DNA of 64,000 nt from Candidatus Magasanikbacteria bacterium GW2011_GWC2_37_14 (GTDB lineage Bacteria; Patescibacteriota; Patescibacteriia; Magasanikbacterales; UBA922): positions 3,392 through 67,391 of the forward strand of contig LBSX01000001.1 in the NCBI GenBank assembly GCA_000990355.1. The letters are read 5' to 3'. Shown one piece after another: positions 5,476 through 58,707 of the stretch. The translations under genes were made by a program, and so were the position numbers. Each line of letters opens with the position of its first letter. Within the stretch, counting starts at the first letter, position 1. The notes beneath the pieces were generated by a model. The model saw only the letters and a list, made by a program, of their open reading frames with translations, did not search any database and was not told the origin of the DNA.

Positions 5476-7016
5476 AGACCAATACTATTTATACTATTTA
5501 AAGCACGTTGTGCGCCTAAATTAAAATGAGACAAAGAAATCATTTGTGAATATAGACGATTGCGCTTGTGATTTAATTCAGCACTATACCAAGGGGCTAG
5601 AGTATGGATATTACTTTTGTCAATTATCCCAGGGTCAACTACCTCTTTCCGATTAACTTCTAACGGTTCTACTTTTTTTAAACCAATATATTGATTAAGT
5701 CTTACTATTTCAGGAATAGAATCGGCTGATAAACTAAACATTAGATAGCGCAAATCCATTTTTTTATTTTCTGTTAAAAAACGATCAATATTTTTCTTGG
5801 CAATTATTGCATCAACATTTAACGAAGCCACCAATGTAAAGACTACTAGACTGAGAATTAAACCACCATAAAAAAACTTTCTAAATGAATAATTAGTAAT
5901 AATCGCTAGTCCTAAAGTAAAATATACTACTCCAGCAAAATAAATAAACCATTCCACGTATAATCTTAAAGTGGTATAGCCATATTCCGCTTGATACAAA
6001 TTCATGCGTTTTAAGGCCGAAAGGGCAATGACAAAAATTTGTAAAATTAACAATAGTTTTAAGGCACTAACAAAATTGTTTTTTCCGTGATGAGCTGAGG
6101 AATGATAAAAAACCAAGAGCAAAATGGCCGAAAAAATCATTACCCAAACCAATTGAAAAAATCCACTGCGAGCATATTCGGCAAAAGTTAGACCATTACT
6201 GATTACAAAATCATGTGCGCCAAACAAATATTTAATTTGAATAAATACAAATATTGCAAACAAGATATTTACTGATAACAAAACTACCGAGGCAATCGTA
6301 AAAGAAATTTTTTGTCTAATTTTTATACCATCTTTGAGTGCATTTTCGTGACTGATCAAAGTATAGAAAAAAGCACTAGCTAAAAAAGTTAAAATTATGG
6401 TTCTAATTATTTGCGCTACAAGGTGAAAATCCAGATCAATATTTATCCGAAAGATTCTTTCTAAACCACTGCTAAATACTTTGTCCGCACCAGCAAACAA
6501 CAAAGTGAACAGTAAAAGTACTGGGGCCGCTACAATTAAACCCACAGCCACTTGTTTATAAATTTCACTATGTTTATCTTCTTTTTTCCAACTAAATAAA
6601 TCACCAAACACTAATCCCAAATTTTTTATTCCCACAAAAACATTTTTTACAACTGGAATATTTTTAAAATAAAAAACAAATTTACTTTCGTTGCGCACGG
6701 TTAAAACAATTGCAAAAAATATTACCAAAACAAAAATAACCAAGGGTAAAAAATATACTACCAAAGCATTATTATAAAGCATTAAATCAAATGCCAAAAT
6801 ATAAATAGGTACCAAAAGCCATAAAGCCCAACGATTATTTAAATGATTAGTATATTTGGTTAAAGACGCAAAACCTAAACCTAAAAAAACAATCATTAAA
6901 AACACTCCCATTCCCCAACTTTCTGACTGCACGACTAATTGTTCGAATAAAATCGCCGCTAGTAATGCCAAAGCAACGTAGGCAAGACGAATAAAACGTG
7001 GGTTTTTAATAGCCAT
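5472..7016 (-). CDS. hypothetical polytopic integral membrane protein
   Basis: 514 aa dominated by hydrophobic helices. The start overlaps alaS by 4 nt. No recognisable catalytic motif. Confidence 0.5.
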   Translation of the reverse strand: MAIKNPRFIRLAYVALALLAAILFEQLVVQSESWGMGVFLMIVFLGLGFASLTKYTNHLNNRWALWLLVPIYILAFDLMLYNNALVVYFLPLVIFVLVIFFAIVLTVRNESKFVFYFKNIPVVKNVFVGIKNLGLVFGDLFSWKKEDKHSEIYKQVAVGLIVAAPVLLLFTLLFAGADKVFSSGLERIFRINIDLDFHLVAQIIRTIILTFLASAFFYTLISHENALKDGIKIRQKISFTIASVVLLSVNILFAIFVFIQIKYLFGAHDFVISNGLTFAEYARSGFFQLVWVMIFSAILLLVFYHSSAHHGKNNFVSALKLLLILQIFVIALSALKRMNLYQAEYGYTTLRLYVEWFIYFAGVVYFTLGLAIITNYSFRKFFYGGLILSLVVFTLVASLNVDAIIAKKNIDRFLTENKKMDLRYLMFSLSADSIPEIVRLNQYIGLKKVEPLEVNRKEVVDPGIIDKSNIHTLAPWYSAELNHKRNRLYSQMISLSHFNLGAQRALNSINSIGL

Positions 7017-7095
7017 AACATTAAAATAAAATATTTATTATTTAATTACTCCCCCGCCCCAGCCTTCGCTAAAGCTACGGCCGGCAAGCACACAT

Positions 7096-8424
7096 TTACT
7101 TTATCACCCCACCTCCCAAACACTCGTTGTTCTTATAAAAAACTGCGAATTGACCAGGAGTGACGGCGCGTTGGGGGTGGGTGAAATGAACCAATAACCC
7201 CCCTCGCCCCCCTTTATTAAGTGGGGAAACGACACAGTCTTGCAACTGTTGGCGATGACGGAGACGTACTTTACATTTTAATGGCCCGCCTTCGCTAATG
7301 CTTCGTCGGGTAAATTCATTAATCCAATTAACATTATAAATAATAATCTCTTTTTTGTACAATAAAGGGTCATTTTCAAAACCAACAATTAATATATTTT
7401 TCTTGATATTTTTATCAATTACAAAATATGGCTGGGTGTCTGTCCTTCTCTTTCCAAGAGAAGGTGGTCGAAGGCCGGAAGAGTTTGCCGGAGTCTTGGC
7501 GGGCCTCGGCAACTCCCCCTGAACCCCCTCCCTGCCTGCCGGCAAGGCAGGTTGGTAAGAGAGGGACACCCCGATGCGTTCACCAATAGTATAAAAAGGT
7601 AAGCCAGTATGTTCACCAACTGCTCCCACTCCCCCTACCCCCTCTCGGGCAGAGGGGGACAATAAAATTTTCCCTTGTTTAGCTTTTACTTTATTTTTTA
7701 AAAAATCACGCATTGGTACTTCGCCAATAAAACAAATTCCCATACTTTCTTCTTTTTCGGCCGTTGGCAATTTAAATTTCTTGGCTAATTTTCTTACTTC
7801 GGGTTTGGTATATCCACCTATTGGAAATAAAACTTGGCATAATTGTTCTTGATTAAGTTGATGAAGAAAATATGTTTGATCTTTGTTGTCGTCTTTGGCT
7901 TGTAATAAAGAAATATTAGCCTGCCCTGGCGCAGCAAAGCGAAGCCGGGCATAATGACCAGTCGCGATTTTCTCAAATCCCATTTTCTTAGCTTTCTCCA
8001 ACCAAAAACCAAACTTTACAAATTTATTACATAAAATATCGGGGTTCGGAGTGCGACCAGTAGAATATTCTTTATACATGTAATCCAAAACAAATTTTTT
8101 GTACTCTTTAACAAAATCCCAGCGTATCAAAGGAATCCCCAAATGTGCGGCTACTCGCAAGGCGTCTTGATAATCTGGCACCCAACAGGGCTCCGCTACG
8201 CTGCGCCCTGTAAACTCTCCACTGCGCCCTGTAAACTCAGAACTCGAACCTGCCAGGCGCAATTCGGAAAATGGAGCCTGGTAATTTACCGCAAACATAC
8301 CAGTAACATCATAACCTTGTTCAACCAAAAGAGCAGCAGCAACTGATGAATCAACACCGCCACTCATTGCTACAAGTATCCTTCGACTTTGCTCAGGATG
8401 AATTTTTTCTTTTTTTACAGTCAT
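7096..8424 (-). CDS. mnmA: tRNA-specific 2-thiouridylase MnmA carrying two in-frame insertions
   Basis: PP-loop SGGVDSSVAA at the N-terminus. The C-terminus (...RLRHRQ...) is typical of MnmA. There is a ~75-aa GC-rich insertion at 7440-7660 and a tandem SEFTGRS-GEFTGRS insert at 8196-8240. Confidence 0.85.
   Translation of the reverse strand: MTVKKEKIHPEQSRRILVAMSGGVDSSVAAALLVEQGYDVTGMFAVNYQAPFSELRLAGSSSEFTGRSGEFTGRSVAEPCWVPDYQDALRVAAHLGIPLIRWDFVKEYKKFVLDYMYKEYSTGRTPNPDILCNKFVKFGFWLEKAKKMGFEKIATGHYARLRFAAPGQANISLLQAKDDNKDQTYFLHQLNQEQLCQVLFPIGGYTKPEVRKLAKKFKLPTAEKEESMGICFIGEVPMRDFLKNKVKAKQGKILLSPSAREGVGGVGAVGEHTGLPFYTIGERIGVSLSYQPALPAGREGVQGELPRPAKTPANSSGLRPPSLGKRRTDTQPYFVIDKNIKKNILIVGFENDPLLYKKEIIIYNVNWINEFTRRSISEGGPLKCKVRLRHRQQLQDCVVSPLNKGGRGGLLVHFTHPQRAVTPGQFAVFYKNNECLGGGVIK
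7440..7660. repeat. GC-rich palindrome-containing insertion inside mnmA (in-frame)
   Basis: Contains the hairpin cctgcctgccggcaaggcagg (compare cctgcctgccggtaggcagg at 49300-49320) and ccctctcgggcagagggg. Local GC is far above the surrounding gene. Confidence 0.6.
8196..8240. repeat. Tandem duplication of a ~21-bp unit (ctgcgccctgtaaactc) inside mnmA, in-frame
   Basis: The unit is seen twice, at 8201-8217 and 8222-8238, encoding SEFTGRS/GEFTGRS. Confidence 0.7.
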
Positions 8425-8426
8425 AA

Positions 8427-9698
8427 TTAATCCACGCGTTCAATATTGGCACCTAATAATTTTAAACGACTAACTAAATCTTCGTATCCACGTTCAATAA
8501 AATGAATATTGTTAATCTCAGTAGTATTGTCGGCAATCAAAGCGGCTAACACTAAAGATACACCCGCTCGAATATCGGTCGCTGTTACTTTGGCGCCACT
8601 AAATTTTATTTCACCTTTAATATTAGCTACTCGCTCGTCAACCACAATTTCGGCCCCCATACGATCTAATTCTGGTACTAACATAAAACGATTAGAAAAA
8701 ATTGTTTCATTTACTTCACTTGCTCCGGCAATTAAACTAAGAAGCACCATCATTTGCGGTTGCAAATCTGTGGGAAAACCAGGATGAACAGCTGTCTCTA
8801 TTTTTGTATTTTTTAATTCATTAATATTGCCTCTAACAGACAACAAATTTTCTTCTTGTGTAAATTTTACACCCATCTCTTCCAATTTAGCAATAAATCC
8901 AGGTAAATCTGACAAATTAACATTTTTTATTTTTACCTTCCCGCCAGTAATAAGAGACATAATAATATAAGTGCCAGCTTCTATTCTATCGGGCATAATT
9001 TCATATTCACAAGCCTGTAATTCTTTTACACCAATAATAATTATTTTATCACTACCTAAACCTTCAATTTTGGCCCCCATTTTAATTAAAAAATTTCCCA
9101 AGTCAACTATTTCTGGTTCTTTGGCTGCATTATTTATAATCGTCTGTCCACTAGCAAGGACTGCTGCCATCATAACATTTTCGGTAGCACCTACACTTGG
9201 AATTTTTAACTTAGTAACTTCTACATCTACTTCCGCACCAGTTAAGTTGTTACCATCCAAATTTACAAAACCATGCTCAGTGTTAACTTGCACGCCCATT
9301 TTTTCAAACGCTCGCAAATGTTGGTCTACAGCTCTAGCACCAAGCGCACAACCACCAGGCATAGCGACTTTGGCTCTTTTCTCTTTACCAATAAGAGGTC
9401 CGGTAATAGTAAAAGAAGCGCGCATTTCACTCACTAATTCATATGGCGCTTCTACCGAAGTAAGGCCATTATTAATTATTTTATAAGTATCATTATTTAA
9501 TTTTTCAACTTTTAAACCTAAATATTCCAAAAGTTTTACCATTGTAGAAACATCACTCAAATTTGGGACATTGTTTAAAATAAATTCACCCTTGGCTAAA
9601 ATTGTGGCACACATAATCGGCAATACCGCGTTTTTCGCTCCTTTTACACTAATTTCTCCAGCTAATTCTGCCCCGCCTTTAATTATAAATTTTGCCAT
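8427..9698 (-). CDS. murA: UDP-N-acetylglucosamine 1-carboxyvinyltransferase
   Basis: 423 aa, MAKFIIKGGAELAGEISVKGAKNAVLPIMCATILA...; MurA fold motifs. Confidence 0.9.
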   Translation of the reverse strand: MAKFIIKGGAELAGEISVKGAKNAVLPIMCATILAKGEFILNNVPNLSDVSTMVKLLEYLGLKVEKLNNDTYKIINNGLTSVEAPYELVSEMRASFTITGPLIGKEKRAKVAMPGGCALGARAVDQHLRAFEKMGVQVNTEHGFVNLDGNNLTGAEVDVEVTKLKIPSVGATENVMMAAVLASGQTIINNAAKEPEIVDLGNFLIKMGAKIEGLGSDKIIIIGVKELQACEYEIMPDRIEAGTYIIMSLITGGKVKIKNVNLSDLPGFIAKLEEMGVKFTQEENLLSVRGNINELKNTKIETAVHPGFPTDLQPQMMVLLSLIAGASEVNETIFSNRFMLVPELDRMGAEIVVDERVANIKGEIKFSGAKVTATDIRAGVSLVLAALIADNTTEINNIHFIERGYEDLVSRLKLLGANIERVD

Positions 9699-11812: not shown

Positions 11813-11918
11813 ATTACGTTATTGCTAGAGTGGCGAATTTGGCTTAGTTAAGCTATTTTCATCCCAAGCAATATAGAGTGAACCTTACAATTTAGTTGAG
11901 TTTACAGTGTCATCAAGC

Positions 11919-11981
11919 GTCATTCCCGCGAAGGCGGGAATCTATATTTCATTGTAAGATCTCCGCCTGCGCGGAGATGAC
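11919..11981. repeat. Bipartite palindromic element (GTCATTCCCGCGAAGGCGGGAATC ... GATCTCCGCCTGCGCGGAGATGAC)
   Basis: Same architecture and near-identical arms to the copy at 58217-58278. It lies in the 5' leader of the GC-rich gene. Confidence 0.7.
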
Positions 11982-12123
11982 GCCAAACAAACGCACCAAA
12001 GGGTGTCTAAATTCTTATCTTTGTACAGGTAAGAACCTAGATGCCCTTTGGTCGAGGGGGCTTCATTCGCTCGGAAATCCCGAGCACGAAAATTTCGACC
12101 ACGAACCACCATGGGAGAGACAG

Positions 12124-12867
12124 ATGACGAAGGGATACCAGTACCCCTACCGCACGAAATTGTGGGACCCGATGAGCGTGCGCCTGATCGAAGTGCCAAC
12201 CGACGCGGTCGGCTGCGTCATTCGCGGCCGCCACGCCGAGCCGGTGCGCGTGGGCCCGGACCACGCGCGCTCCCTGACGCCCGATGGCATCGCCATGGCC
12301 ATGACGGTTCAGATCCAGTACAGGGCGCTCATCGGCTTCCTGGGGAAGCACTTCGCCGAGCCGGCCTACTGGGCGTCGAACGCGGTGCGCTCAATCGTGA
12401 GCACGGCCCTGGCCACCGGGGCCGAGGTGGTGGAGCAGGACTCCCTGCTCAACTTGACGATCTCTATCGCCAAGGCGCCTGACCCCGAGGGCTGCCACGC
12501 CAACTTCCACGAGCACTGCGTGGCCAAGGGCATCAAGCTGGGCGAGATGTTCCGCTGGGTCACGGAAGATCCGGCGCGCTTCGGCGACCAGCCCGTGGAA
12601 GAGGCGCTCGCCAAGTGCAACGCCTTCAACACCAAGCTGATCGCGACCAGCGGCAACGAGGGACGATTCAAGGTCACTTTCGACCACGAACCGGCCAACT
12701 CGCTGTGGGCGAGGAGGAACGGCGTCTCGTTGGACGATCTAGGCCTGGACGTGCTCCAGGCCTACATCATCTTCCTGGGTGGACCGCACGGACACGTCCT
12801 CAGTGTCCAGAAGTTCTACCCGGACACCACCGCGACCCTGCCGGTCGTCTCCGCCACCTCGCGCTGA
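12124..12867 (+). CDS. hypothetical protein encoded by a ~64% GC island (possible horizontally acquired cargo)
   Basis: 247 aa from the ATG at 12124, with GGGAGAG RBS-like sequence 5 nt upstream; MTKGYQYPYRTKLWDPMSVRLIEVPTD.... An upstream 28-codon ORF (12041-12127) ends in a TGA that overlaps this ATG. The track ORF begins further upstream at a TTG, and an ATG at 11977 is an alternative start. Confidence 0.5.
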   Translation: MTKGYQYPYRTKLWDPMSVRLIEVPTDAVGCVIRGRHAEPVRVGPDHARSLTPDGIAMAMTVQIQYRALIGFLGKHFAEPAYWASNAVRSIVSTALATGAEVVEQDSLLNLTISIAKAPDPEGCHANFHEHCVAKGIKLGEMFRWVTEDPARFGDQPVEEALAKCNAFNTKLIATSGNEGRFKVTFDHEPANSLWARRNGVSLDDLGLDVLQAYIIFLGGPHGHVLSVQKFYPDTTATLPVVSATSR

Positions 12868-13030
12868 TTCCCACCGCCACCTCTCACCTCTCTCGCCCCC
12901 TGCCACGTCGTCGTCAGACTTTACGTGGTCTCACGGGCACAACTCAACATCAAGGTTCGCTCTCAACCCCCGTGGTTCACACCCGGGGGAAGAGACTAAT
13001 TCAATCATTTATAAATGATTGAATTACTTC

Positions 13031-13069
13031 ACACAAAATCCACCAAAAAGGTGGATTTTGTGTTTTTGT
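13031..13069 (+). terminator. Rho-independent terminator (14-bp perfect stem plus T-tract)
   Basis: acacaaaatccacc-aaaaa-ggtggattttgtgt followed by tttt. Confidence 0.7.
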
Positions 13070-13074
13070 CTGAC

Positions 13075-13560
13075 CCCTCCTTACGAAGGAGGGGTGACTT
13101 CGACCTTCGCAGGTCGGAGACGGGGTGGTTAGAGTTTGTTAAGATATTTACAGGTGTTATAAATATCCTCAATAGTTTCATGTAGATATCTAAATACCTG
13201 TTCTGAAGTATATCTGTTTATGGTGAGTCCAAGTGATTTTAAATAATTTTCTTTTTTAATATCTTTTTCTTGCACTAGTTCATCTTCATGAGTACTACCA
13301 TCCACTTCTATAGCTAGTTTTAGTTGTTGACAATAGAAATCTACGACTACATTGCCAACCCCACATTGACGACGAAATTTATAACCTAATTGTCTATTTG
13401 ATAAGTGTTTCCACAAAACTGTTTCACTCTTGGTTGGCTGATTCCTTAAAATCTTTCTTAGTTTGGTTTTTGTTTTTTGATTGAAAATTTTTGTCATACT
13501 TAACCACCTCCCCCCGACTGCGACGTCGGGGTACTCCTCCTTCGTAAGGAGGAGTCAATG
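13075..13560. mobile_element. Candidate miniature mobile element: ~60-bp imperfect terminal inverted repeats flanking a DUF559 endonuclease gene
   Basis: Left arm, 13075-13135: cccctccttacgaaggaggggtgacttcgaccttcgcaggtcggagacggggtggtta. The reverse complement of the right arm, 13500-13560, is tgactcctccttacgaaggaggagtaccccgacgtcgcagtcggggggaggtggtta. Confidence 0.45.
13129..13497 (-). CDS. DUF559-family endonuclease-domain protein (Vsr/restriction-endonuclease-like fold)
   Basis: 122 aa with ETVLWKHLSNRQLGYKFRRQCGVGNVVVDFYCQQLKLAIEVDGSTHE, the characteristic DUF559 motif set. Confidence 0.7.
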   Translation of the reverse strand: MTKIFNQKTKTKLRKILRNQPTKSETVLWKHLSNRQLGYKFRRQCGVGNVVVDFYCQQLKLAIEVDGSTHEDELVQEKDIKKENYLKSLGLTINRYTSEQVFRYLHETIEDIYNTCKYLNKL

Positions 13561-14170: not shown

Positions 14171-14283
14171 GTCATCCTGAATTTACCTGCCTATCGGCAG
14201 ACAGGTTTCAGGATCTTTCATAAAATAATATTTATTTAGTAAGTTAGATTAAGGGATAGATGCTGAAACAAGTTCAGCATGAC
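14171..14283. repeat. Bipartite palindromic element, GTCATCCTGAA..TTCAGGATC / GATGCTGAA..TTCAGCATGAC type
   Basis: Near-identical copy at 17367-17479, diverged copies at 23457-23548 and 25056-25147. The 3' hairpin overlaps the stop and last codons (..KLSC*) of the adjacent paralog. Confidence 0.8.
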
Positions 14284-15842
14284 AGCTTTCTCACTATCCC
14301 ATGGCTTGCATCTACTTCTACCAAATCACCATCTTTTAAGACTTGAGTGGCCATTTTGGTGCCGACCACGCAAGGAATATAAAGCTCACGAGAAACAATA
14401 GCCGCATGGCAAATAATACCGCCTAAATCAGTAACAATGGCCACAGCTTTTTTTATAGCTGGCATAATATCTGGACTAGTGGCATAAGAAACCAAAACAT
14501 TCCCCTTCTCCATTTTGTTAATTTCTTTTGGTGAATTAATAATTTTTACAATACCACGCACTTTGCCCACGCTAGCACAATCACCCACAAGTTGATTTAC
14601 TTTTTCGGTCTTTTGCTTAATAAATTTTATTTGTTTAACAAAATCTTTGGCTTTTTTGCCTTCGTAAGTCACCCTAGTTTTAGTAGTGCTAAATTGAACT
14701 GCAAAAATTCTTTCATTTAAAATATGCTCATTTGGGCCTTTATTTTTTAACAAATTTTTTAATTCCCAAGAATATAATCTATTTATTTGGCTCATAGACA
14801 ACTGTTGTCGTCTAGCCACTTCTCGTAATAATTTTTGCAACACATAACAACTGTAATATTGAACATCTTTGCGATAAGATTTTGAATAAACAAAACGCTG
14901 GGCCAATTTAAACAATTCTTGAAATTCACTGCGAATTTCCAGATCTTTAATATAATTCTTTTGCGCTCGAATAATTTCTTGTTTTTTATTGGCAATTTTC
15001 TTTAATTCTTCTTCGGGATTTGTTTTTTGTTGCAATAAGCGAATAAGGGAATCTACAAAATAATCAATCCCCCACTCTGGCCCCATATACATAAAAGGCA
15101 ACCAACAATATTTTTCATAATGATTTTTTAAAGCTAACCAAGATTTTTTATCTACCAATTGCCAAGTACTTATTACTTTTTGTAAATCATTGCGAAGCAA
15201 AAAATTTACCAATTTTTTATTTTGTTTGATCTTTTGTAAAAGTTTTAACAAATCAATAGTTTCTTTTTGCGCAAAAGTTTCGGTTGTAGGAGTAGTGAGA
15301 ATACTAAAAACATCACCCACTGAGATTTTTAATTTATTTGCTTGAATTTTTTGCTTAAGATAATTATTTAAATGATTGGAAAATAAGTTTTTTTCAAAAT
15401 CTACTAATACTATTGGCCAACCAGCACACCAAGTATTGTGCAATCCCTTAAACCATTCTGCCCCGAGTTTGGCCAAATCCTTATCAGAAGTATTTTTTAA
15501 ATTTATTTTTTCCAATTTTTGTGAAAAAACAAAAAACTTGTGAGCATTGTTTAATGTTAATTCATCCGTCTTTATTCCCCATTCAGGATTACTAATAATT
15601 TTATTAAAAATCTCATTTGTACAAACACGTAAATCTTCCAAACGATAATAATACAAAAAATCGTCATTTTCAAAAATATCCAGAGTGTCACCCGGATTAG
15701 TTTTTAAATGATGAATACTCTTAAAATATTTATTCACCAAAATAGAATCAGCCAAACAAAAATGAAAAAATGGCGCCCGTGGTATGCGCTCTAAAAGAAA
15801 AAAACTAGGTGATTTTTTTGACATAAAATTAATTAGCTTCAC
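14274..15842 (-). CDS. PEP-utilising-enzyme mobile (phosphohistidine) domain protein, array paralog 1
   Basis: 522 aa. C-terminus GDCASVGKVRGIVKII...GNVLVSYATSPDIMPAIKKAVAIVTDLGGIICHAAIVSRELYIPCVVGT is the PEP-utiliser swivel His domain. N-terminal shared motifs: FSILTTP, KYCWLPFMYMGPEW, SKSYRKD. Confidence 0.75.
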   Translation of the reverse strand: MKLINFMSKKSPSFFLLERIPRAPFFHFCLADSILVNKYFKSIHHLKTNPGDTLDIFENDDFLYYYRLEDLRVCTNEIFNKIISNPEWGIKTDELTLNNAHKFFVFSQKLEKINLKNTSDKDLAKLGAEWFKGLHNTWCAGWPIVLVDFEKNLFSNHLNNYLKQKIQANKLKISVGDVFSILTTPTTETFAQKETIDLLKLLQKIKQNKKLVNFLLRNDLQKVISTWQLVDKKSWLALKNHYEKYCWLPFMYMGPEWGIDYFVDSLIRLLQQKTNPEEELKKIANKKQEIIRAQKNYIKDLEIRSEFQELFKLAQRFVYSKSYRKDVQYYSCYVLQKLLREVARRQQLSMSQINRLYSWELKNLLKNKGPNEHILNERIFAVQFSTTKTRVTYEGKKAKDFVKQIKFIKQKTEKVNQLVGDCASVGKVRGIVKIINSPKEINKMEKGNVLVSYATSPDIMPAIKKAVAIVTDLGGIICHAAIVSRELYIPCVVGTKMATQVLKDGDLVEVDASHGIVRKLSC

Positions 15843-17358
15843 TAATAATATTAACTAGACCCTTGTTTGCATCTACTTCTACTTCGTCTCCATCCTTTAA
15901 TATTTGCGTACCTATTTTGGTACCTATAACGCACGGGATATTTAACTCACGCGAAACAATAGCAGCGTGGCAAGTAATACCACCAACATCTGTAATAATT
16001 GCTTTGGAAATTTTCATTAGTGGCATCATGTTAGGATTGGTGGCATAGCTTACCAAAATATCATGAGCATAAAATTTTCCATAATCCTTTTGGTCTAACA
16101 CAACTTTTACCACACCTCTAACCTTGCCAGGACAAGCACATTCACCAATTAGTACTTTTAAATTTTTATCTATAACCAACTTTTCTAAATTATCCCTATA
16201 CTTTTGTGCTTCATCACCAGCAAATAATTTTACTTTTAAATTTTCACAAGCATAAACGGATAACTTTATTCTCTTATTAACCAAATTATAATCAACTTCT
16301 TTTTTGTTTAATAAGATTTCACTTAATTCTTCTATTGATAAGTAATGAGCTTGGTGAGCACTAAGATAATTTCTTTTACCTATTTCTGTAAGTAACAAAT
16401 GATAAGAATAGTTTCCGCAATATTCAACATCTTTTCTGATCGCTTTTGAAAATCCCAATTCCCTTATTAACCAAACAAGATGCATCTCATATTTATTTAA
16501 AAGCAATTCCTTTTCCCAAAATTTCTGAATTTTGCTAAAATCTTTTTGATTTTTTCTAATATCTACTTCTAAATCAAAAGGATCCTTACGAACTAGTTCT
16601 ATTGTTGATTGTATTATATCTTCTAAAGATAATAATGGCCCTTCAAAACCAAAACTTAACCATTTATATTTATCCCAATGCTTAAACAAGATTTCTTTTA
16701 ATCCAATGTAATTGTCTAAATCACGACTAATTTGGGAAAAATCATTTTTAAAAAATTCATCCCATTTTTTGTTCTTAACAATTTTTTTAGCAATTAATAA
16801 TAATTCATCACGTTCTTTTACTAAATAAGTTTTTTTATTATTAGTGGATAAAATTTGAAACAACTCCTCTGTACCTATTCCTAATTTTAGCTCATTTACT
16901 TTAGATTTTAACAACAGTTTTACTTTTTTGGATAAAAGTTGATGTTCATATTCAACAAACGAAATTAATACGCCCCAAGAAGCTAATTTTAAAAATAAAT
17001 CTCTAAAATCAATAATTAAATTATTTAAATTACCATCTGTTTGTTTATTTAAATCCAAATTAATTACTTTTTTAGAAAAATCATAAAATCTATCAAGAAA
17101 AATAGTTGTATTTTGTAAAACTTTCTGTGAATATACTTTATCTTCCAAATGACTCAAAATATACTTACCCGCTTTATGGTAATCTTGCCAATGTATACCT
17201 TGTGTCAATTCACCATTATTCCTTAGCTCTACGAAATGATCAACTGCCGCTGTGCGACCGCAGGTTTTAGCAAAAAATGCGCCTGTAGCTTGAATATGGT
17301 AGGCATATGGAAACAAATTGGCGTTATATTGTTGATTAAGTATTTTCCATTTACGCAT
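15829..17358 (-). CDS. PEP-utilising-enzyme His-domain protein, array paralog 2
   Basis: 509 aa; ...GECACPGKVRGVVKVV...GGITCHAAIVSRELNIPCVIGT. Overlaps paralog 1 by 14 nt. Confidence 0.75.
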   Translation of the reverse strand: MRKWKILNQQYNANLFPYAYHIQATGAFFAKTCGRTAAVDHFVELRNNGELTQGIHWQDYHKAGKYILSHLEDKVYSQKVLQNTTIFLDRFYDFSKKVINLDLNKQTDGNLNNLIIDFRDLFLKLASWGVLISFVEYEHQLLSKKVKLLLKSKVNELKLGIGTEELFQILSTNNKKTYLVKERDELLLIAKKIVKNKKWDEFFKNDFSQISRDLDNYIGLKEILFKHWDKYKWLSFGFEGPLLSLEDIIQSTIELVRKDPFDLEVDIRKNQKDFSKIQKFWEKELLLNKYEMHLVWLIRELGFSKAIRKDVEYCGNYSYHLLLTEIGKRNYLSAHQAHYLSIEELSEILLNKKEVDYNLVNKRIKLSVYACENLKVKLFAGDEAQKYRDNLEKLVIDKNLKVLIGECACPGKVRGVVKVVLDQKDYGKFYAHDILVSYATNPNMMPLMKISKAIITDVGGITCHAAIVSRELNIPCVIGTKIGTQILKDGDEVEVDANKGLVNIISEAN

Positions 17359-17366
17359 ATTATTTT

Positions 17367-17479
17367 GTCATCCTGAATTTACCTGCCTATCGGCAGACAG
17401 GTTTCAGGATCTTTCTTAAAATAATATTTATTTAGTAAGTTAGATTAAGGGATAGATGCTGAAACAAGTTCAGCATGAC
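17367..17479. repeat. Bipartite palindromic element (copy of 14171-14283)
   Basis: ~120 bp near-identical to 14165-14290, including the AT-rich spacer. Confidence 0.8.
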
Positions 17480-18960
17480 AGCTTTATTACATCTCCATTA
17501 TTACCATCAACTTTTACTAAATCATTATCTTTAAAAATCTTAGTCGCAACTTTTGAACCGACCACACAGGGTTTTTTCATCTCGCGTGCCACAATCGCTG
17601 CATGACAAGTAATGCCACCAATATCAGTGACAAAAGCACTGGCTTTTTTCATGGCTGGTAAAAAATCAGGTGAAGTTTGAACAGCTATTAAAATATCTCC
17701 CTCTGCTACTTTATCAATATCCTTGGCTGTTAAAACCACCTTGGCCTTGCCAGTTGCTTCACCAATATAGGCAACCATACCATGAACCGAAGTAGTATTA
17801 ATATTAAATTCCTCTTGGGCTACGTTTTCTGCCAAATATTTTTCAGCGGCTTTTCCCGTTAAATAAAAAAACTTTTTACCTGGTTCCTCTATACAAACAC
17901 AATGTTGTTTTCTTCCGGCAACTGGTAAATCCTGTATATCCAACTTACCAGCCAAAATATCCAAAAGTTCATACAAACTACAGCGATGTAAATTTACTTT
18001 GGAAATTTCTAATAGTTCTGCCGCCCTATCTAGTAATAAATCTAGGGCAAAAAACATCTTAAACTCGGTTTCAGTGCGGTATTGTTTGTTATACATCATA
18101 TCTCGCGCACCTTTAAACAAATTTTGCTCTACCTCACTCAACTGCAATTTTTCAACTAATTCCTCTTGTTTGACAGCAAATAACTCAAGTTCTTTTTCCG
18201 CCTCTGCCAAACGACTTTCAATATTGCCCATAGTCAAAATCTCTTTTACCTCTTCTACATAAAATTTTTCATCATGTGAGGGGCCAACATAGCCAAAATC
18301 AAACCAAATATATTTTTCTTTTAATTTTTTTATCCGAGGATCATTTACTGCCAAATCACTCTTACCTTGACGTGAGACAATTAAAGCCAATTCAAATAAA
18401 TCTAATTTTAAATCTCGGGCAAAAATATTTTTTATGGGAGTAATTAAAATACTAAAAGCCTCGTTGATATTTATATTTAACTTTAAATCCTCTACTTTTT
18501 TCTTAATAATATCTTTTAGTAAAGTGGAAAGTTTGTAATGACGCAAATCCGAAACTACGGCCACAAAACCCACTCCACACAAATCTTTGCCAGCCTGATA
18601 AAGTTTGCCAATATATTTGGCTAATTTAGCTTTGTTAAATTTTGTCAGATCTTCTTTCATTATTTTATCCGACAATTTAATCACTTTTTTACCTAAGCTT
18701 ATTTCCTCTTTTAAAACTTGAGTACTGTAATTTTTGTCATTTTTTAATTTTTCAATAATAATTTCTCCCATGGCCGTAAAATTTTCCAAATCTCCATACC
18801 AATTAGTACTAGTGTCTTCATGGTGTTCCAAAAAAGAATAGTCAAATTTTAAGGGGGCAGTATGAGGGAAACTGTATTTTTCATGAAAACCCCATTGATT
18901 AAGGCTTAGGGTCAATGGCGTAACTCCTTGTTCTTGATGTAAAATTTTAGATTTTTTCAT
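17470..18960 (-). CDS. PEP-utilising-enzyme His-domain protein, array paralog 3
   Basis: 496 aa; ...GEATGKAKVVLTAKDIDKVAEGDILIAVQTSPDFLPAMKKASAFVTDIGGITCHAAIVAREMKKPCVVGS. Confidence 0.75.
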   Translation of the reverse strand: MKKSKILHQEQGVTPLTLSLNQWGFHEKYSFPHTAPLKFDYSFLEHHEDTSTNWYGDLENFTAMGEIIIEKLKNDKNYSTQVLKEEISLGKKVIKLSDKIMKEDLTKFNKAKLAKYIGKLYQAGKDLCGVGFVAVVSDLRHYKLSTLLKDIIKKKVEDLKLNININEAFSILITPIKNIFARDLKLDLFELALIVSRQGKSDLAVNDPRIKKLKEKYIWFDFGYVGPSHDEKFYVEEVKEILTMGNIESRLAEAEKELELFAVKQEELVEKLQLSEVEQNLFKGARDMMYNKQYRTETEFKMFFALDLLLDRAAELLEISKVNLHRCSLYELLDILAGKLDIQDLPVAGRKQHCVCIEEPGKKFFYLTGKAAEKYLAENVAQEEFNINTTSVHGMVAYIGEATGKAKVVLTAKDIDKVAEGDILIAVQTSPDFLPAMKKASAFVTDIGGITCHAAIVAREMKKPCVVGSKVATKIFKDNDLVKVDGNNGDVIKLSC

Positions 18961-20432
18961 ATTTTTCTCACCACTCCCTTGTCGGCATCCACCTCTACCT
19001 CATCACCATCATGCAAAACATCGGTAGCAACTTTGGTGCCAATTATACAAGGAACTTTTAGTTCACGAGCCACTATTGCCGCATGACAAGTAATGCCACC
19101 CAAATCAGTAATAATCGCCGCAGCCTTTTTCATGGCTGGCACAATACTCGGGTTAGTCATATGCGAAACCAAAATATTACCTTCATGCATTTTTGCCATT
19201 TCCTGAATTTTATTAATAATTTTTACTCTGCCAGTTACTTTACCTTTAAAAGCAGGCTGACCGGTAAGTTCTTGACTATTTTTTTGAATATTTTTTTCTT
19301 CAAAAAATTTCATTTTTGCTCGTATTTTTTTGGCTTCTTCTCCAGAATAATAAACCGTTTGTCCACGATCGGCAATATGCAAACTATATTTCATTCGCTG
19401 GCTGGCCAATTGTGACAAATCTTCACCCTTGATTAACACTCTTTCAAAATCTGTATGTGCCAAAAATCTAACCTGCTCCATGGTTAAATAAGTACGTTTG
19501 GCAACTTCTTTAAATATTTTATCCATTGAATAATATCCAAAAAACTGGGCGTCTTTACTTAAAAGACGGGTATAAAAAGAATCTTGGACAATTTTAAAAA
19601 TCTTTTGGTGTGTGGGATGAATATTATAAGTAGCAAAAATTTCTTTTTGCTGTCTTAAGGTTTCTTGCATCTCTTTTTTTAGATTTTCCAAAAACTTTTT
19701 AGCGCCTTTGTCTTTCAACTTATTCAACTCTTCATTAAAATATGCTTTATCCAAAAATTTTCCTTGTAAACCATATTCCAACCATTCGTATTTTTTTGTA
19801 TGCTTACTCAAAGCAGTTTCTTGTTTACTATTTTCAAGCAAAACAATTTTGGCTAATTCTTCTTTTTCTTTGGTCCAGATACTTTTTTCTTTTGGCACAC
19901 AAAGAATTTGAAAAGCATCATTGGGTTCAAGCTTCACTTCATTTTTAACATCTTGATATTTTTCTTGTAAATAATCTTGTAAATATTTGCTAAGCAAATT
20001 ATAGGGTGTTTCCAAAAACCACATTGGTCCGCGCGGGTCATGCACCAAAATTTGCTTTTGTTCAAACTTATTTATCCAGGTTAACAAATCTTTATTAGTA
20101 GCTTTTTTAAGATTAAGTGTTTGTAGATGCTTACCAAAAACAAACATTTCTTTGGCATACTTTTCGGTTACTTTATGTAGCCCATCCCAACGTTTGGGAT
20201 TGGTAAACATCCAAGAAAAAACCTCTTTATTGGTAGCATCAAAATGTTCTTTGGTAACAAAAAGATTACAACTAGAATTAATATATTCTGCGCCTAAATA
20301 ACGGCCGGGAATAAAACCCCAACGTTTTGGTAAATTGGTGGTAAAACCTTCCCAAGTAGCAGTTACAAAAAGATAATTTGCATAATCTTCTTTTTCTATT
20401 AATTGCCATTCTTTGTTGTATGGTATTTGCAT
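18957..20432 (-). CDS. PEP-utilising-enzyme His-domain protein, array paralog 4
   Basis: 491 aa; ...GQPAFKGKVTGRVKII...GGITCHAAIVARELKVPCIIGT. Confidence 0.75.
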   Translation of the reverse strand: MQIPYNKEWQLIEKEDYANYLFVTATWEGFTTNLPKRWGFIPGRYLGAEYINSSCNLFVTKEHFDATNKEVFSWMFTNPKRWDGLHKVTEKYAKEMFVFGKHLQTLNLKKATNKDLLTWINKFEQKQILVHDPRGPMWFLETPYNLLSKYLQDYLQEKYQDVKNEVKLEPNDAFQILCVPKEKSIWTKEKEELAKIVLLENSKQETALSKHTKKYEWLEYGLQGKFLDKAYFNEELNKLKDKGAKKFLENLKKEMQETLRQQKEIFATYNIHPTHQKIFKIVQDSFYTRLLSKDAQFFGYYSMDKIFKEVAKRTYLTMEQVRFLAHTDFERVLIKGEDLSQLASQRMKYSLHIADRGQTVYYSGEEAKKIRAKMKFFEEKNIQKNSQELTGQPAFKGKVTGRVKIINKIQEMAKMHEGNILVSHMTNPSIVPAMKKAAAIITDLGGITCHAAIVARELKVPCIIGTKVATDVLHDGDEVEVDADKGVVRKI

Positions 20433-20437
20433 AATAA

Positions 20438-20558
20438 TCTCGAGCCACAGCGAGAGATCCCTTTTCTATGAGATTAACTCGCTATATTAAATTAGTTGTT
20501 TAGTTAAATCGAAAGGGATTCCTCACCCCGCATTTGCGGGGTTCGGAATTATGGTGAC
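20438..20558. repeat. ~115-bp palindromic element; an inverted copy is at 58596-58703
   Basis: The reverse complement of 58596-58703 aligns almost base for base (atctcgagccacagcgagagatccc...gggattcctcacc...ttcggaat). Its end supplies the last codons (PNPANAG*) of paralog 5. Confidence 0.8.
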
Positions 20559-22013
20559 AACCCCCTTACTCGCATCCACCTCTACTATATCACCATCCTT
20601 CAACACTTTAGTAGCAATTTTAGTGCCGATCACACAAGGAATGTTTAGTTCTCTTGCTATTATCGCAGCATGACAAGTGAGCCCACCTTCATCTGTAATT
20701 ACAGCTTTGGCTTTTTTCATAGCTGGCAAAAATTCTGGTTGTGTCATACAAGCCACTAAAATGTCTCCTTCCTGCATTTTTACCAATTCACTTTCTCCTC
20801 TACATACTTTCACAGTACCAGTGACTTTACCCACAGAAGCACAATTACCTTTAATTTCAGTAACATCTTCAATTTCTTTATTTTTATTTAATTTAGACCA
20901 GAATAATTCTGCGTCCTTGCCTACAAACACCTTTGGCTCTTCCTGCGGAAGAAAAACATATAGACTACTCTTTCGACGTTTTTCCAACTCTGGCACAATC
21001 TCAGGTAACTGTTCCAATTCTGCTGGAAGAATATAGTGTAAGTAACTTAAAGGAATTTTAAATTTACTAGCTATTTCTTTTAAAATTAATTCTAAATAAA
21101 TGATTGACTGGGTCATGTATTCCTTACGGCGATCGTGAATAATAAATAAGGTGTCCGCGATCTCCAGAAGGTCTAATAATTCCTGATTTTCAATTTTTTT
21201 CATCAATTTTTTCTTCTCTGCCAATTTTTTTGGTAAACTCTCAAAATCATTGATAAATTTTTCAAAATCTACACCTTTATTGAACGTCTCCTTTAGCTCG
21301 GATACAAAATCTTTACTATCCAAAAATTTAGATGAAGTATAACTATTTAATTTCCAATAATACTTTTTTTGATGATGAAGAATCTTTTTAGCAATTTTTC
21401 TATTCGACAAAATTCCATCCATATCCACATCTTGCAAACCTTTCTTTTTTATCTCACGTGCAATCAAACATAAATTGTAATGTTCCCTCGATACGAACGA
21501 ATGAATAACGGGGGTAGTTAATAATAGTAGATCATTTTGACCACTAAACAATTCCTTAACCAACGTTCTTATTTTTTCCTCTGTAGTTAAAGTAAAACCC
21601 TCCACAATATGTGAAACACTAAGAAGATATGCATATAATTCATTTGCTTTTCCCCAAGCAGTATAAAGTTCTTCTAGTGACGCTGTGGACCATTCCTTTT
21701 TACCTAAAATCTTAAACTGCTTTAATGTTTTTTTACAAATTTTTTCATCAGATTTTAGTAAATAAAATAAAAAATTCTTACTACTTTTAAAACGTTCTTG
21801 TAACTCATTATTAATCCTATGTAAATCATCCCAACCATACAAAAAATAACACACATCATTTGAAAAATACTCTATACAAACAGAATAGCCAAAATTTAAA
21901 AATTTTGGCATATCTCTAACCATTGACCAAGCCGGGCCATGAAGTAGAGCAGGCACACCATTGAATCCCTGAAAATACCAACTTTTTTCAGTTAAATAAT
22001 TAATTTCTTTCAT
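20523..22013 (-). CDS. PEP-utilising-enzyme His-domain protein, array paralog 5
   Basis: 496 aa; ...GNCASVGKVTGTVKV...GGLTCHAAIIARELNIPCVIGT. The C-terminal tail is encoded by the repeat element. Confidence 0.75.
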   Translation of the reverse strand: MKEINYLTEKSWYFQGFNGVPALLHGPAWSMVRDMPKFLNFGYSVCIEYFSNDVCYFLYGWDDLHRINNELQERFKSSKNFLFYLLKSDEKICKKTLKQFKILGKKEWSTASLEELYTAWGKANELYAYLLSVSHIVEGFTLTTEEKIRTLVKELFSGQNDLLLLTTPVIHSFVSREHYNLCLIAREIKKKGLQDVDMDGILSNRKIAKKILHHQKKYYWKLNSYTSSKFLDSKDFVSELKETFNKGVDFEKFINDFESLPKKLAEKKKLMKKIENQELLDLLEIADTLFIIHDRRKEYMTQSIIYLELILKEIASKFKIPLSYLHYILPAELEQLPEIVPELEKRRKSSLYVFLPQEEPKVFVGKDAELFWSKLNKNKEIEDVTEIKGNCASVGKVTGTVKVCRGESELVKMQEGDILVACMTQPEFLPAMKKAKAVITDEGGLTCHAAIIARELNIPCVIGTKIATKVLKDGDIVEVDASKGVVTIIPNPANAG

Positions 22014-22024
22014 AAATAAATTTG

Positions 22025-23461
22025 TTAAATAACCCTTTTTATTATACCATTAAATGCATCCACCTCAACCACATCGCCATCATGTAAAAACTTAGTAGCA
22101 AATTCTGTACCAACCACACAAGGTATTTGTAACTCTCGCGCTACAATGGCTGCATGGCATAACATTCCCCCTTGATTAGTTACGATTGCTTTAGCTTTGC
22201 GAATCGCTGGTAAATAATCTGGATCAGTCATAGGACAAACTAAAATTTCTCCTTCTTCCATTTTATCAACTTCATCCATAGAATGTAAAATATTTACCAC
22301 TCCAGTTTCTTTTCCCTGCCAAATTGGTGTGCCTTGTAAAAATTCTATGGCCGGGACTTCCTTCTCAACAACTTGTAACAAGCTCTCGGCTTCCGAGCCA
22401 GAACAATGTAATACCTCTCGTTTGGAGCCCAAGACACAATAACTTTTGATTCTTCGATTCAATTCATCTACATCGGGTGATTGTCCATTCATTAACAACT
22501 TTTTTAACTCGCCAATGGTTAACATAAAGAGCTGATTATAAGACAAACCGTGTTCAGCGGCAATTTTTTTAAAAAAATTACGCTGGTGGGCACCGGCTAT
22601 AGAAATTACATCCCAATTTTCCTCTTTCAAGTCAGCTAAATCGCGCACAATATCCAAAAATTTCCAAGCTTCGGGGTATTTAATTTTTAAATCTTCTAAG
22701 ATTGTTTCTGCTTCTTGATGCTGTAACTCTTTTTTCTGAATTAATAATTTCAATTTTTCTTCTGGCTTTTCTTTACTCAACTTTTCTATTTCCTGGCGGT
22801 AATATTCTGCATTAAATGGCTCCGTCCACCAACATAGAGAATTAGTCCAGCCATAATCCGTCGCATGTTTTTTAAAATCTTCTGCAACATCCCCACCAGC
22901 TTTTAATTTTATGGCAATGTTTAATAAATTAATTTCTCCTAAAATTATTGGGAAGTCTTTTTTAGGCAAGGCCGCCTTGGCTACTAGCTCCGCTTGGCTT
23001 ATTTCTCTTCCAGCTAAATTAAATTTTTGTGGCAAATCCAAAAAAATTTCTTGCAAAGCTCCATCAGCTAACATAATACCAAGCCAATAACGGGTATGAT
23101 TAAAACTGGTAAGTAAATAATCTTCAATCTTCTCCCAAACCAAACTCGTTAATTGTATTCCTAAAAGTTTATCTCTGGAAGCATAAATTAATTTTTGATA
23201 ATCTTTTCTAAACTGCACAGAATCATTTTTTAAAATTTCTTTTACCTCCTGCACTCCCTCTCGATAATCTTCTTCCAAAATAAATTGACCATGACCTAAA
23301 ACTAAATAATATTTTGGTACATATGGCACAGTAATTTTAAAATCTCCATCAACAGCGTTGCGCGACATTCCATCTTCAAACATGCCAGTATGTTTCCATC
23401 GGCCAAACAAATGCCATTTATTATTTTTGATTATTTCTGTTTGATTCATATTATCTGTCAT
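22025..23461 (-). CDS. PEP-utilising-enzyme His-domain protein, array paralog 6
   Basis: 478 aa; ...GTPIWQGKETGVVNIL...GGMLCHAAIVARELQIPCVVGT. Confidence 0.75.
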   Translation of the reverse strand: MTDNMNQTEIIKNNKWHLFGRWKHTGMFEDGMSRNAVDGDFKITVPYVPKYYLVLGHGQFILEEDYREGVQEVKEILKNDSVQFRKDYQKLIYASRDKLLGIQLTSLVWEKIEDYLLTSFNHTRYWLGIMLADGALQEIFLDLPQKFNLAGREISQAELVAKAALPKKDFPIILGEINLLNIAIKLKAGGDVAEDFKKHATDYGWTNSLCWWTEPFNAEYYRQEIEKLSKEKPEEKLKLLIQKKELQHQEAETILEDLKIKYPEAWKFLDIVRDLADLKEENWDVISIAGAHQRNFFKKIAAEHGLSYNQLFMLTIGELKKLLMNGQSPDVDELNRRIKSYCVLGSKREVLHCSGSEAESLLQVVEKEVPAIEFLQGTPIWQGKETGVVNILHSMDEVDKMEEGEILVCPMTDPDYLPAIRKAKAIVTNQGGMLCHAAIVARELQIPCVVGTEFATKFLHDGDVVEVDAFNGIIKRVI

Positions 23462-23548
23462 CCTGAATTTATTTCAGGATCTTTTTTAAGTATTTTTTAT
23501 TTAATAAATCTAGATAACGAAAAGATGCTGAAACGAGTTCAGCATGAC
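23457..23548. repeat. Bipartite palindromic element (GTCATCCTGAA..TTCAGGATC / GATGCTGAAACGAGTTCAGCATGAC)
   Basis: Same two-hairpin architecture as 14171-14283. Confidence 0.7.
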
Positions 23549-25047: not shown

Positions 25048-25055
25048 AAACGTTT

Positions 25056-25147
25056 GTCATCCTGAACTTGTTTCAGGATCTTTAATAAAATAATATTTAT
25101 CTAGAAAATAATCTAACGAAAAGATGCTGAAATAAATTCAGCATGAC
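25056..25147. repeat. Bipartite palindromic element (GTCATCCTGAACTTGTTTCAGGATC / GATGCTGAAATAAATTCAGCATGAC)
   Basis: Same family as 14171-14283. Confidence 0.7.
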
Positions 25148-37595: not shown

Positions 37596-37753
37596 AATAT
37601 CAATTTTACTTGCCCGGTCGTAGCTTTAGCGAAGACGGGTCTTTTATTTGTTGTACTTCATCCGACATATCTCTTATAGACTATACTATTTGCCATAATT
37701 TGGCAAGCATTGTAAAATACTCACATCTCTATTTATAGTGAGTTTACCGAACT

Positions 37754-44324: not shown

Positions 44325-44385
44325 ATTCCTTAAGTTTAATAATTAAGATATTTATTATAGCATCTAACTGTGTAGATTACAAAAA

Positions 44386-44560
44386 ACAAAAAACCGCCTT
44401 TTCTCCTTGCTCAAATTATTATTTTTAATAAGCTGAATAGGGTGGCGGTTTTTGTCACCCATTTTTGCTTGGGTGCGCCCGGAAGTGGGCGAAGGTGCGA
44501 GAGGTGGGCGCTGCTAAACAGCGAAAGGCGACGACGAATCCAGGAAGGTGCGGAAGGTAG
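44386..44560. repeat. GC-rich ~170-bp repeat, copy A (inverted relative to copy B at 49095-49268)
   Basis: The reverse complement of 49150-49266 matches 44386-44500 almost exactly (ggtggcggtttttgtcacccatttttgcttgggtgcgcccggaagtgggcg, plus the hairpin aaaaaccgcc...ggcggttttt). Similarity then decays over the next ~70 bp. Confidence 0.75.
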
Positions 44561-48817: not shown

Positions 48818-48845
48818 TCCCCTCCCCCTTGTAGGGGGAGGAAAA
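48818..48845. repeat. GC hairpin ttcccctccccc-ttgta-gggggaggaaa in the secA 5' UTR
   Basis: Perfect 10-bp G/C stem 14 nt upstream of the secA ATG. It sequesters a GGAGG that could serve as the SD. Related hairpins are at 48258-48300, 49264-49300 and 49350-49380. Confidence 0.6.
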
Positions 48846-49268: not shown

Positions 49269-49380
49269 TGTTTCCCTCCCCTACAAGGGGAGGGTTAGCC
49301 TGCCTGCCGGTAGGCAGGGGTGGGGTCTGGCAAACAGCGAAACCTCCTCCTCGCCTCCCCCTTATAGGGGGAGGAAAATT
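49264..49380. repeat. Cluster of three GC hairpins (ccctcccctacaaggggaggg; cctgcctgccggtaggcagg; cctcccccttatagggggagg) downstream of hpf
   Basis: Perfect palindromes directly readable. Likely terminator(s) for hpf on the minus strand. Confidence 0.65.
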
Positions 49381-58703: not shown

Positions 58704-58707
58704 TTTT

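Follow-up and report, generated by a model that had tools for sequence, protein, structure and literature searches.

Palindromic repeats probably settled in permissive loops of a working MnmA protein in a Candidatus Magasanikbacteria bacterium

We analysed a 64,000-nucleotide stretch (the window) of contig LBSX01000001.1 from Candidatus Magasanikbacteria bacterium GW2011_GWC2_37_14, a member of the Candidate Phyla Radiation (CPR, or Patescibacteria), and found that its mnmA gene carries short GC-rich palindromic units in frame at several loops of the encoded protein. These units have a definite anatomy, belong to recognisable families, are present in some and absent from others of near-identical orthologs, and leave the fold of the protein intact. 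We consider it likely, with a probability of about 75%, that they are palindromic repeats resembling repetitive extragenic palindromic (REP) sequences or Rickettsia palindromic elements (RPE), which have taken up residence in permissive loops of a working MnmA, where they are read into the protein as disordered segments.

The mnmA gene is a single intact open reading frame (ORF) of 442 amino acids (positions 7096..8424 of the window, minus strand). Its product matches solved MnmA proteins over its full length (phmmer against PDB: 2hma with E=1.7e-77 and E. coli MnmA 2der with 8e-72), contains the Pfam domains PF03054, PF20259 and PF20258 and is 100% identical to KKQ28166.1 from a CPR metagenome-assembled genome of Candidatus Magasanikbacteria. 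The PP-loop SGGVDS, NPDxxCN and GICF(I/V)GE motifs, which are invariant in our ortholog alignment, are all kept. The gene is intact despite its inserts, as the original prediction had claimed.

Inserts were defined against solved MnmA structures and against insertion-free orthologs of 355 amino acids, which the protein exceeds by about 87 amino acids. They sum to 387 nt with a GC content of 61%, while the rest of mnmA is at 35%, the overall level of the window, and their positions coincide with short loops of both the structures and the insertion-free orthologs. The GC-rich region 7440-7660, which had first drawn attention to the gene, does reach 60% GC in this 35% GC window and its translation is exactly as then given. 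The proposal that it represents a single insertion of 75 amino acids did not hold, as the region comprises two inserts (about +8 and about +37 amino acids) on either side of a conserved block at residues 270-285. Similarly, the idea of tolerated in-frame insertions in a surface loop was right for the short-loop positions and the low-confidence coil described below, but wrong for the number of insertions, which is at least five in the gene; the segments 7915-7947, 7282-7317 and 7189-7230 and a hairpin just past the stop codon (7056-7085) had been overlooked.

At least two families of units are present. Family 1 has a conserved apical sequence, G(T/C/A)AGC-N2-3-AGCG(A/G)AG, inside a variable stem, and family 2 consists of a C/T-rich arm, a short loop (e.g. 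TGCCCGA or TTGGAAA), a complementary G/A-rich arm and a G-rich tail. Insert A (residues 51-79, about +22 amino acids; 8188..8274, minus strand, like all mnmA features below) is 59% GC, encodes PFSELRLAGSSSEFTGRSGEFTGRSVAEP and is missing from the 355-amino-acid orthologs. Hairpin 1 of this insert (8253..8281; CCAGGC-N17-GCCTGG) is a decayed family-1 unit in reverse orientation, at the place of which orthologs carry GGGGC-GTAGC...AGCGAAG-CCCC on the other strand, with two stem pairs altered on both sides. Hairpin 2 (8185..8211) is a family-1 unit that reads ACAGGGC-GCAGCGTAGCGGA-GCCCTGT and of which the last three bases of the 3' arm are the codon of the invariant Cys80. The insert also contains the 21-bp in-frame tandem duplication that had been predicted (8197..8238), which encodes SEFTGRS-GEFTGRS and which we confirmed: its two units (8238..8218 and 8217..8197) are identical at 19 of 21 positions, share a 17-nt core GAGTTTACAGGGCGCAG exactly (0.02 expected by chance) and copy the 5' arm and part of the loop of hairpin 2. 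Tandem Repeats Finder, run on 7000-8500, returned nothing on this duplication because two copies this short fall below its score, and it was verified by direct comparison.

The remaining units are simpler. A segment at site 2 (residues 160-170, about +3 amino acids; 7915..7947), which may be an insert or a replacement, encodes RLRFAAPGQAN at 64% GC and carries a family-1 core on the opposite strand (7931-7944, plus strand). Insert B (residues 256-268, about +8 amino acids; 7618..7662) is 67% GC, encodes SPSAREGVGGVGA and consists of the family-2 unit TCCCCCTC-TGCCCGA-GAGGGGG followed by a G-rich tail TAGGGGGAGTGGG. The adjoining block GEHTGLPFYTIGERIG (residues 270-285; 7570..7617) is 40% GC and is not inserted DNA, as it aligns to solved structures and to every ortholog as the GEHxGLxFYTIGxR block. 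Insert C (residues 286-331, about +37 amino acids; 7429..7572) is 63% GC and holds three hairpins in series: a family-2 hairpin with a G-rich tail (7513-7551, CCTGCC..GGCAGG), within which hairpin CCTGCCTGCCGGCAAGGCAGG occupies 7531-7551, a second hairpin at 7481-7515 (GAGTTGCCG..CGGCAAACTC) and a third at 7444-7464 (CCTTCTCTT-GGAA-AGAGAAGG). Insert D (residues 372-379, about +5 amino acids; 7282..7317) encodes TRRSISEGG and is the family-1 unit CCCGAC-GAAGC-ATT-AGCGAAG-GCGGG. Insert E (residues 400-410, about +4 amino acids; 7189..7230) encodes SPLNKGGRGG and reads CCCCAC-TTAATAAA-GGGGGG with a tail CGAGGGGGG; it probably belongs to family 2, an assignment that is the weakest of all because its fold is no better than that of shuffled sequences (z = +0.8). 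Just past the stop codon, the intergenic family-1 hairpin GCCGGCC-GTAGC-TTT-AGCGAAG-GCTGGGGC (7056..7085) folds better than its shuffles (z = -4.0, with 0/200 shuffles as good).

An AlphaFold2 model of the protein, built from 92 sequences, indicates that the full three-domain MnmA fold is retained, with the long inserts A and C as low-confidence coil (pLDDT about 45-55, and about 47-53 for insert C). The predicted template modelling (TM) score is 0.81 and the predicted local distance difference test (pLDDT) score exceeds 90 in the core, and Foldseek superposes the model on 2hma, 2der and 2det with target-normalised TM scores of 0.87-0.88. Residues 58-77 of insert A are predicted without secondary structure at pLDDT <50; the same is true of residues 290-330 of insert C, with a mean pLDDT of about 50 and values <50 at 300-302 and 314-324. 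Examples of predicted MnmA peptides that would span insert junctions are SEFTGRSGEFTGR and EGVQGELPRPAK.

The same kinds of units recur elsewhere in the window. Six clear copies of family 1 were found, three inside mnmA (hairpin 2, insert D and the site-2 segment) and the others with cores at 7064-7078 (the intergenic hairpin past the stop codon), 36901-36915 (in dnaG) and 37620-37634 (intergenic). Family-2 and related hairpins lie at 13074-13094, 13534-13554, 48264-48284 (in secA), 48821-48841, 49274-49374 and other places. The original prediction had related hairpin CCTGCCTGCCGGCAAGGCAGG to a second-family copy near 49300, and this relation was confirmed: its first 12 nt are repeated at 49299-49310 (0.02 matches expected by chance) inside CCTGCCTGCCGGTAGGCAGG (49299-49318), which is one of four related hairpins in an intergenic cluster (49274..49374, plus strand). 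Perfect GC-rich hairpins occupy 45 loci of the window, compared with 2-11 in block shuffles. Although coding DNA makes up 88% of the window, 27 of the 45 are located outside the listed ORFs, 9 of them within two large GC-rich blocks. In-frame palindromic inserts were also found in other genes, including a radical S-adenosylmethionine (radical-SAM) gene (two), a pyridoxal-phosphate (PLP)-dependent enzyme, a Mur ligase, SecA and DnaG, which makes mnmA one instance of a genome-wide habit, as far as 64 kb of this genome can tell.

Orthologs show what happens at these loops over time. Among the best 120 CPR MnmA proteins, lengths range from 342 to 464 amino acids (median 381), and inserts of at least 5 amino acids cluster at the same five loops, with 52, 53, about 54 and 18 of the 120 proteins carrying one at four of these. 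The inserted peptides are translations of recognisable repeat types, several of which are found at more than one site: SPSAREG occupies site 1 in 6 orthologs and site 3 in 5, and both the CHSE...RNDD type and VIPAKAGIQ are found at sites 2 and 4. A scan of genome contigs for MnmA gave, among the matches listed, mostly distant and insertion-free proteins from other phyla. The closest relative, P0002, which is syntenic with an identical gene order around mnmA and 64% identical, carries unrelated hairpins at sites 1 and 4. The [FL][TA]G[RQ]S hairpin of insert A was found at site 1 only, in at least 17 of the 120 orthologs, and the 17 carriers are scattered over a neighbour-joining tree that is itself not robust. 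The original prediction had named sharing of the segment by orthologous MnmA proteins as evidence against it, and for the segment that bears the 21-bp duplication such sharing is seen: with the same hairpin at that loop in at least 17 orthologs, several of which have tandem duplications of their own, it is neither private to this genome nor an assembly accident. Independent duplications of hairpin arms were indeed seen in L088 (27 nt, three copies), L081 (27 nt, two copies) and L083 (33 nt, two copies, in hairpin 1), so that the duplication in the window is typical of the family and no oddity of assembly. Sharing between orthologs thus applies to the duplicated segment and not to insert C (+37 amino acids), at the loop of which the closest relatives carry different elements.

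Gain or loss of whole units could be followed between close relatives. Pairs of orthologs with 92-96% core identity differ at 2-3 sites, and they do so by whole elements. At the DNA level, which was available from 12 look-ups of exact proteins, the trio L089, L090 and L091 (about 90% identical, 89-92%) offers two contrasts between a filled and an empty site. A 33-bp unit of family 2, TCCCTTCCTGCCCGAGGAGGGGTTAGGGGTGGT, which shares its hairpin loop with insert B and sits at the same loop of MnmA, is present in L089 only and missing in L090 and L091, and a 117-bp element, TGTCATTCCGAG...GGATGACA, related to the elements of about 95 nt found in the window (see below), occupies the site-4 loop in L090 only. 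We considered whether hairpin stems could be inverted copies of flanking host DNA, an idea that the family-2 comparison of filled and empty sites did not support. L089 and L090 also have 54 extra bases at the annotated N-terminus compared with L091, containing two small hairpins (TCGGCC-CAA-GGCCGA and TCCGCC-TTG-CGCGGA), which are either a further insert or the result of a mis-called start codon.

Hairpin 2 is itself widespread outside mnmA. With its exact stem, it was found in at least 120 metagenome stretches, and none of the 82 matches that we read lies in mnmA. About 70 of the 82 are in soil contigs of 60-66% GC, and about 10 are in AT-rich, CPR-like contigs, where they are mostly intergenic, with one in frame in an ORF of 487 amino acids. 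Since the same hairpin sits at many loci other than mnmA, it belongs to a widespread repeat family, and the candidate reading of hairpin 2 as a regulatory hairpin specific to mnmA was rejected as a main explanation. In the soil contigs (L099, L100, L172 and about 70 others), the hairpin makes up one half of a unit, AGCCCCGAAGGGGCGAGATTCGATAGCC + CAGGGCGCAGCGAAGCGGAGCCCTGGG, which is about 57 nt long and recurs every 80-100 nt; the two-hairpin units reached the gathering score of the Rfam family Acido-Lenti-1 in 3/3 soil contigs scanned (L099, L100 and L172). In five AT-rich contigs (L098, L136, L138, L142 and L156, of which L138 shares its contig with the mnmA of ortholog P0046), the hairpin CAGGGCGTAGC..AGCGAAGCCCTG runs straight into TGGATAA, such that a perfect DnaA box, TGTGGATAA, overlaps its 3' arm. 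No exact DnaA box was found anywhere in the window.

Several observations weigh against the view that neutral repeats inserted themselves into mnmA. Both filled/empty contrasts (L089 and L090) lack a target-site duplication, and in each the element stands in place of a few host codons, so that these sites do not demonstrate clean insertion by cut-and-paste. When whole inserts were compared with the window by BLAST, matches were 9-15 nt long only: copies are not near-identical and show no trace of recent bulk copying from a master, which is also why the families were defined by motif and hairpin scans. A Pfam scan of 40 ORFs of the window found no transposase domain, the advantage in fold energy of individual inserts over shuffles of matched composition is only modest (z = -1.4 to -2.7, the latter for insert C, and +0.8 for E), and their translation is deduced rather than observed. 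Lastly, the four-fold degenerate sites of hairpin 2 are fixed in orthologs of only about 55-60% identity (ACA in 7/7, GGG in 8/8), while the adjoining conserved DYQDALRVA codons are saturated at synonymous sites, and the two hairpin 1 stem pairs changed on both sides look compensatory; judged from these sequences, such patterns could reflect selection on a nucleic-acid structure, not neutrality.

These last two patterns feed the main rival explanation, a nucleic-acid role for some of the hairpins. They would be kept as mRNA structures that slow translation, set the half-life or bind a factor, or as DNA sites, with the protein loops as a by-product; conserved apical sequences on variable stems in both families and the DnaA box that abuts the same hairpin in five AT-rich metagenome contigs fit that idea too. 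We nevertheless regard it as unlikely, given that the same hairpin is found in many unrelated contexts, in either orientation and mostly between genes, that near-identical orthologs do well whether they have a given element or not, and that no Rfam family matches the mnmA region. The covariation, moreover, rests on 7-9 sequences only, and recurrent insertion of a single family would likewise mimic conservation at synonymous sites. If the inserts were lineage-specific functional extensions of the enzyme, such as loops touching tRNA or a sulfur-relay partner, one could understand why the [FL][TA]G[RQ]S...E.CW segment is restricted to one loop in 17/120 orthologs, beside an invariant Cys-Trp, and why Arg, Gly and Ser abound in the inserts, a frequent feature of RNA-binding loops. 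This seems very unlikely, however, when the elements at these loops are unrelated in P0002, the closest syntenic relative, the 355-amino-acid orthologs lack all inserts, the same sequences occur in unrelated genes and in intergenic DNA, and the model renders the inserts as low-confidence coil.

An artefact would be slightly less probable still, whether through chimeric assembly, through collapse or expansion of a repeat at the 21-bp duplication, or because the gene is a decaying pseudogene. The source is indeed a metagenome-assembled genome, the six contigs with the exact protein may all copy one deposit, and the window includes two large GC-rich blocks that look foreign; yet in orthologs from independent metagenomes the loop with the duplication holds homologous hairpins, in which the same arm has been duplicated separately, the 21-bp units differ at 2 positions, and all inserts keep the frame in a gene with intact conserved motifs and a complete fold. 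Least credible of all is the possibility that the segments are intervening sequences (an intron, an intein or a translational bypass) whose removal yields a mature enzyme without them. It would account for compositionally foreign and highly structured DNA within a conserved gene, but Rfam reports no intron family on 6900-8600 even at E<=1 (nothing relevant, the sole match being sok with E=0.74), and inserts of 4-37 amino acids are far below the size of inteins and have no intein motifs, so that neither an intein nor a self-splicing intron was retained as a candidate. Furthermore, each of the five inserts has a net length divisible by three, and 120/120 listed orthologs stay in frame; translation of the inserts demands this, whereas their removal from the RNA would not.

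The settlement of palindromic repeats in protein-coding genes has been encountered elsewhere. Ogata and colleagues reportedly described the Rickettsia palindromic elements in 2000 as 'selfish DNA in protein-coding genes'. As with RPE, the palindromic repeats studied here belong to a bacterium with a small genome and lie in frame in its conserved genes, where the fold can accommodate them, the peptide that they encode is tolerated on the protein surface, and the same families also occur between genes. They differ in that the mnmA units are about 25-45 bp long and strung together, compared with the 100-150 bp of RPE-1, that their sequence families are distinct and GC-rich in an AT-rich host, that one gene holds several independent units, and that turnover at the same loops over many orthologs is seen directly. 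Since the host phylum and the element lengths differ from those of Rickettsia RPE-1 to RPE-8, we claim an analogy only. RPE are also mentioned in a study of GTAG- and CGTC-tagged REPs inside genes (Di Nocera et al. 2013, PMC3733652), which are imperfect palindromes of 20-40 bp that are mostly intergenic, sometimes in frame in known genes, and then often present as dimers or clusters encoding 20-30 amino acids. The mnmA units share with REPs their short size, their palindromy, the intergenic bias of hairpins (27/45 loci, in one 64-kb window) and head-to-head dimers, which were seen in ortholog P0027. In contrast, the GTAG of family 1 lies inside the hairpin after the 5' arm and is not an unpaired end tag, family 2 has no tag, copy identity is low and no gene for a REP-associated tyrosine transposase (RAYT) was seen among 40 ORFs of the window; membership of the GTAG/CGTC REP superfamily was rejected on the position of the tag.

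Other groups of mini-elements offer more distant parallels. The GC clusters of yeast mitochondria are GC-rich palindromic mini-elements spread across a very AT-rich genome, sometimes coding in frame and polymorphic between close strains. On all these counts, they and the fungal mitochondrial elements resemble the mnmA units, but their host is an organelle and their sequences are unrelated. We know of no link between these mitochondrial elements and bacteria. Yeast GC clusters and fungal mitochondrial double-hairpin elements are reviewed in PMC8811140, and MITEs (miniature inverted-repeat transposable elements) in PMC10969869. The longer elements TGTCATTGCGAG...CTCGCAATGACA (about 95-117 bp), found in the window and in orthologs, are MITE-like in having terminal inverted repeats and in occupying the same MnmA loop in relatives, whereas the window's mnmA inserts are simple hairpins that lack terminal inverted repeats, and no duplication of a target site was observed; MITE membership of the mnmA units therefore fails on both counts. 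Finally, the repeated two-hairpin units of the 60-66% GC soil contigs, which where scanned score as the Rfam family Acido-Lenti-1 (RF01687), have CAGGGCGYAGC..AGCGRAGCCCTG as their first hairpin, but the mnmA region holds a single hairpin instead of a two-hairpin unit, and membership was rejected, as the region 6900-8600 has no match at E<=1 and only the relatives in soil contigs do. Our literature search found no description linking CPR or Patescibacteria with REP, MITE, RPE or in-frame palindromes, which is no proof of absence.

If mnmA was colonised by palindromic repeats, the following course of events would fit. GC-rich palindromic units would have entered the gene at five or six loop positions, and the only copies to last would be those with a net length divisible by three that landed in a loop tolerant of extra residues. 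Retained copies would be translated into surface loops that are rich in Ser, Gly, Pro, Arg and Ala and probably disordered, with selection acting as a filter on frame and position only. Such a filter accounts for the fact that relatives have accumulated different elements at the same five MnmA loops. Units turn over fast, form clusters and are prone to slippage, the 21-bp duplication being a slipped copy of one hairpin arm. We infer translation, neutrality or near-neutrality, and the mode of spread; candidates for the latter are templated repair and a transposase of the RAYT/IS200 type that acts on single-strand hairpins, neither of which was found.

The surroundings of mnmA hold further repeats and unusual segments. 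The neighbours of the gene are core genes, with murA upstream and the genes for a DUF4153 protein, alaS and ribosomal proteins downstream. Elements some 95 nt long carry internal hairpins between terminal inverted repeats CTGTCATTGCGAG...CTCGCAATGACAG and lie at 55926-56020, 60160-60266, 61763-61840 and 62629-62730, and also at 50966-51107 and 51896-51950; they are in frame within an ATE_C-like ORF, the PLP enzyme, the radical-SAM gene (two copies) and a NUDIX-containing ORF. An inverted repeat pair of about 110 nt (44381-44491 and 49161-49272, 89-98% complementary) encloses a 4.7-kb segment with a cyclophilin gene and secA, with GC-rich stretches just inside both arms, and a second pair of 106 nt (20422-20527 and 58613-58718, 93% complementary) is 38 kb apart. 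A DUF559 or restriction-endonuclease-like ORF (13129-13497) sits between two clusters of family-2 hairpins (13039-13116 and 13512-13554). The two large blocks of more than 60% GC, at 12132-12999 and 53477-54181, look like foreign DNA or chimeric assembly: the latter encodes on its minus strand an N-terminal purH fragment of 197 amino acids (MGS and the start of AICARFT), and the ORF of the former (11896..12867) has no Pfam match. In addition, 11 paralogous genes of about 1.1-1.6 kb each are arrayed head-to-tail at 14274-30561 (minus strand); the 4/4 scanned with Pfam end in the mobile domain of phosphoenolpyruvate-utilising enzymes (PF00391), and their N-terminal parts have no Pfam match.

A much broader reading, which we hold to be doubtful, is that GC-rich hairpin elements form a large and active population in CPR bacteria, as yet undescribed, that routinely settles in loops of housekeeping proteins and accounts for much of their length variation. 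With apical sequences conserved and stems variable, these elements would spread by a mechanism or enzyme that has yet to be recognised, and certain copies, for instance hairpin 2 near Cys80 with its conserved synonymous sites, might have been taken over as RNA or DNA signals.

The behaviour that we describe is already known from Rickettsia RPE and from REPs; what is added here is the quick gain and loss of copies at the same loops in related bacteria. The mnmA gene of this ultra-small bacterium offers a clean, multi-copy case of repeat DNA within a gene of the essential type, and the repeat inserts explain the spread of CPR MnmA lengths from 342 to 464 amino acids. For annotators and structure predictors, this is a reason for caution, as GC-rich loops of CPR proteins with many Gly, Arg, Pro and Ser residues are often repeat DNA and not functional extensions. 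The five recurrent sites also amount to a natural map of insertion tolerance in MnmA. If the pattern extends genome-wide, it raises the questions of how genomes under heavy size reduction retain such elements and of what moves them.

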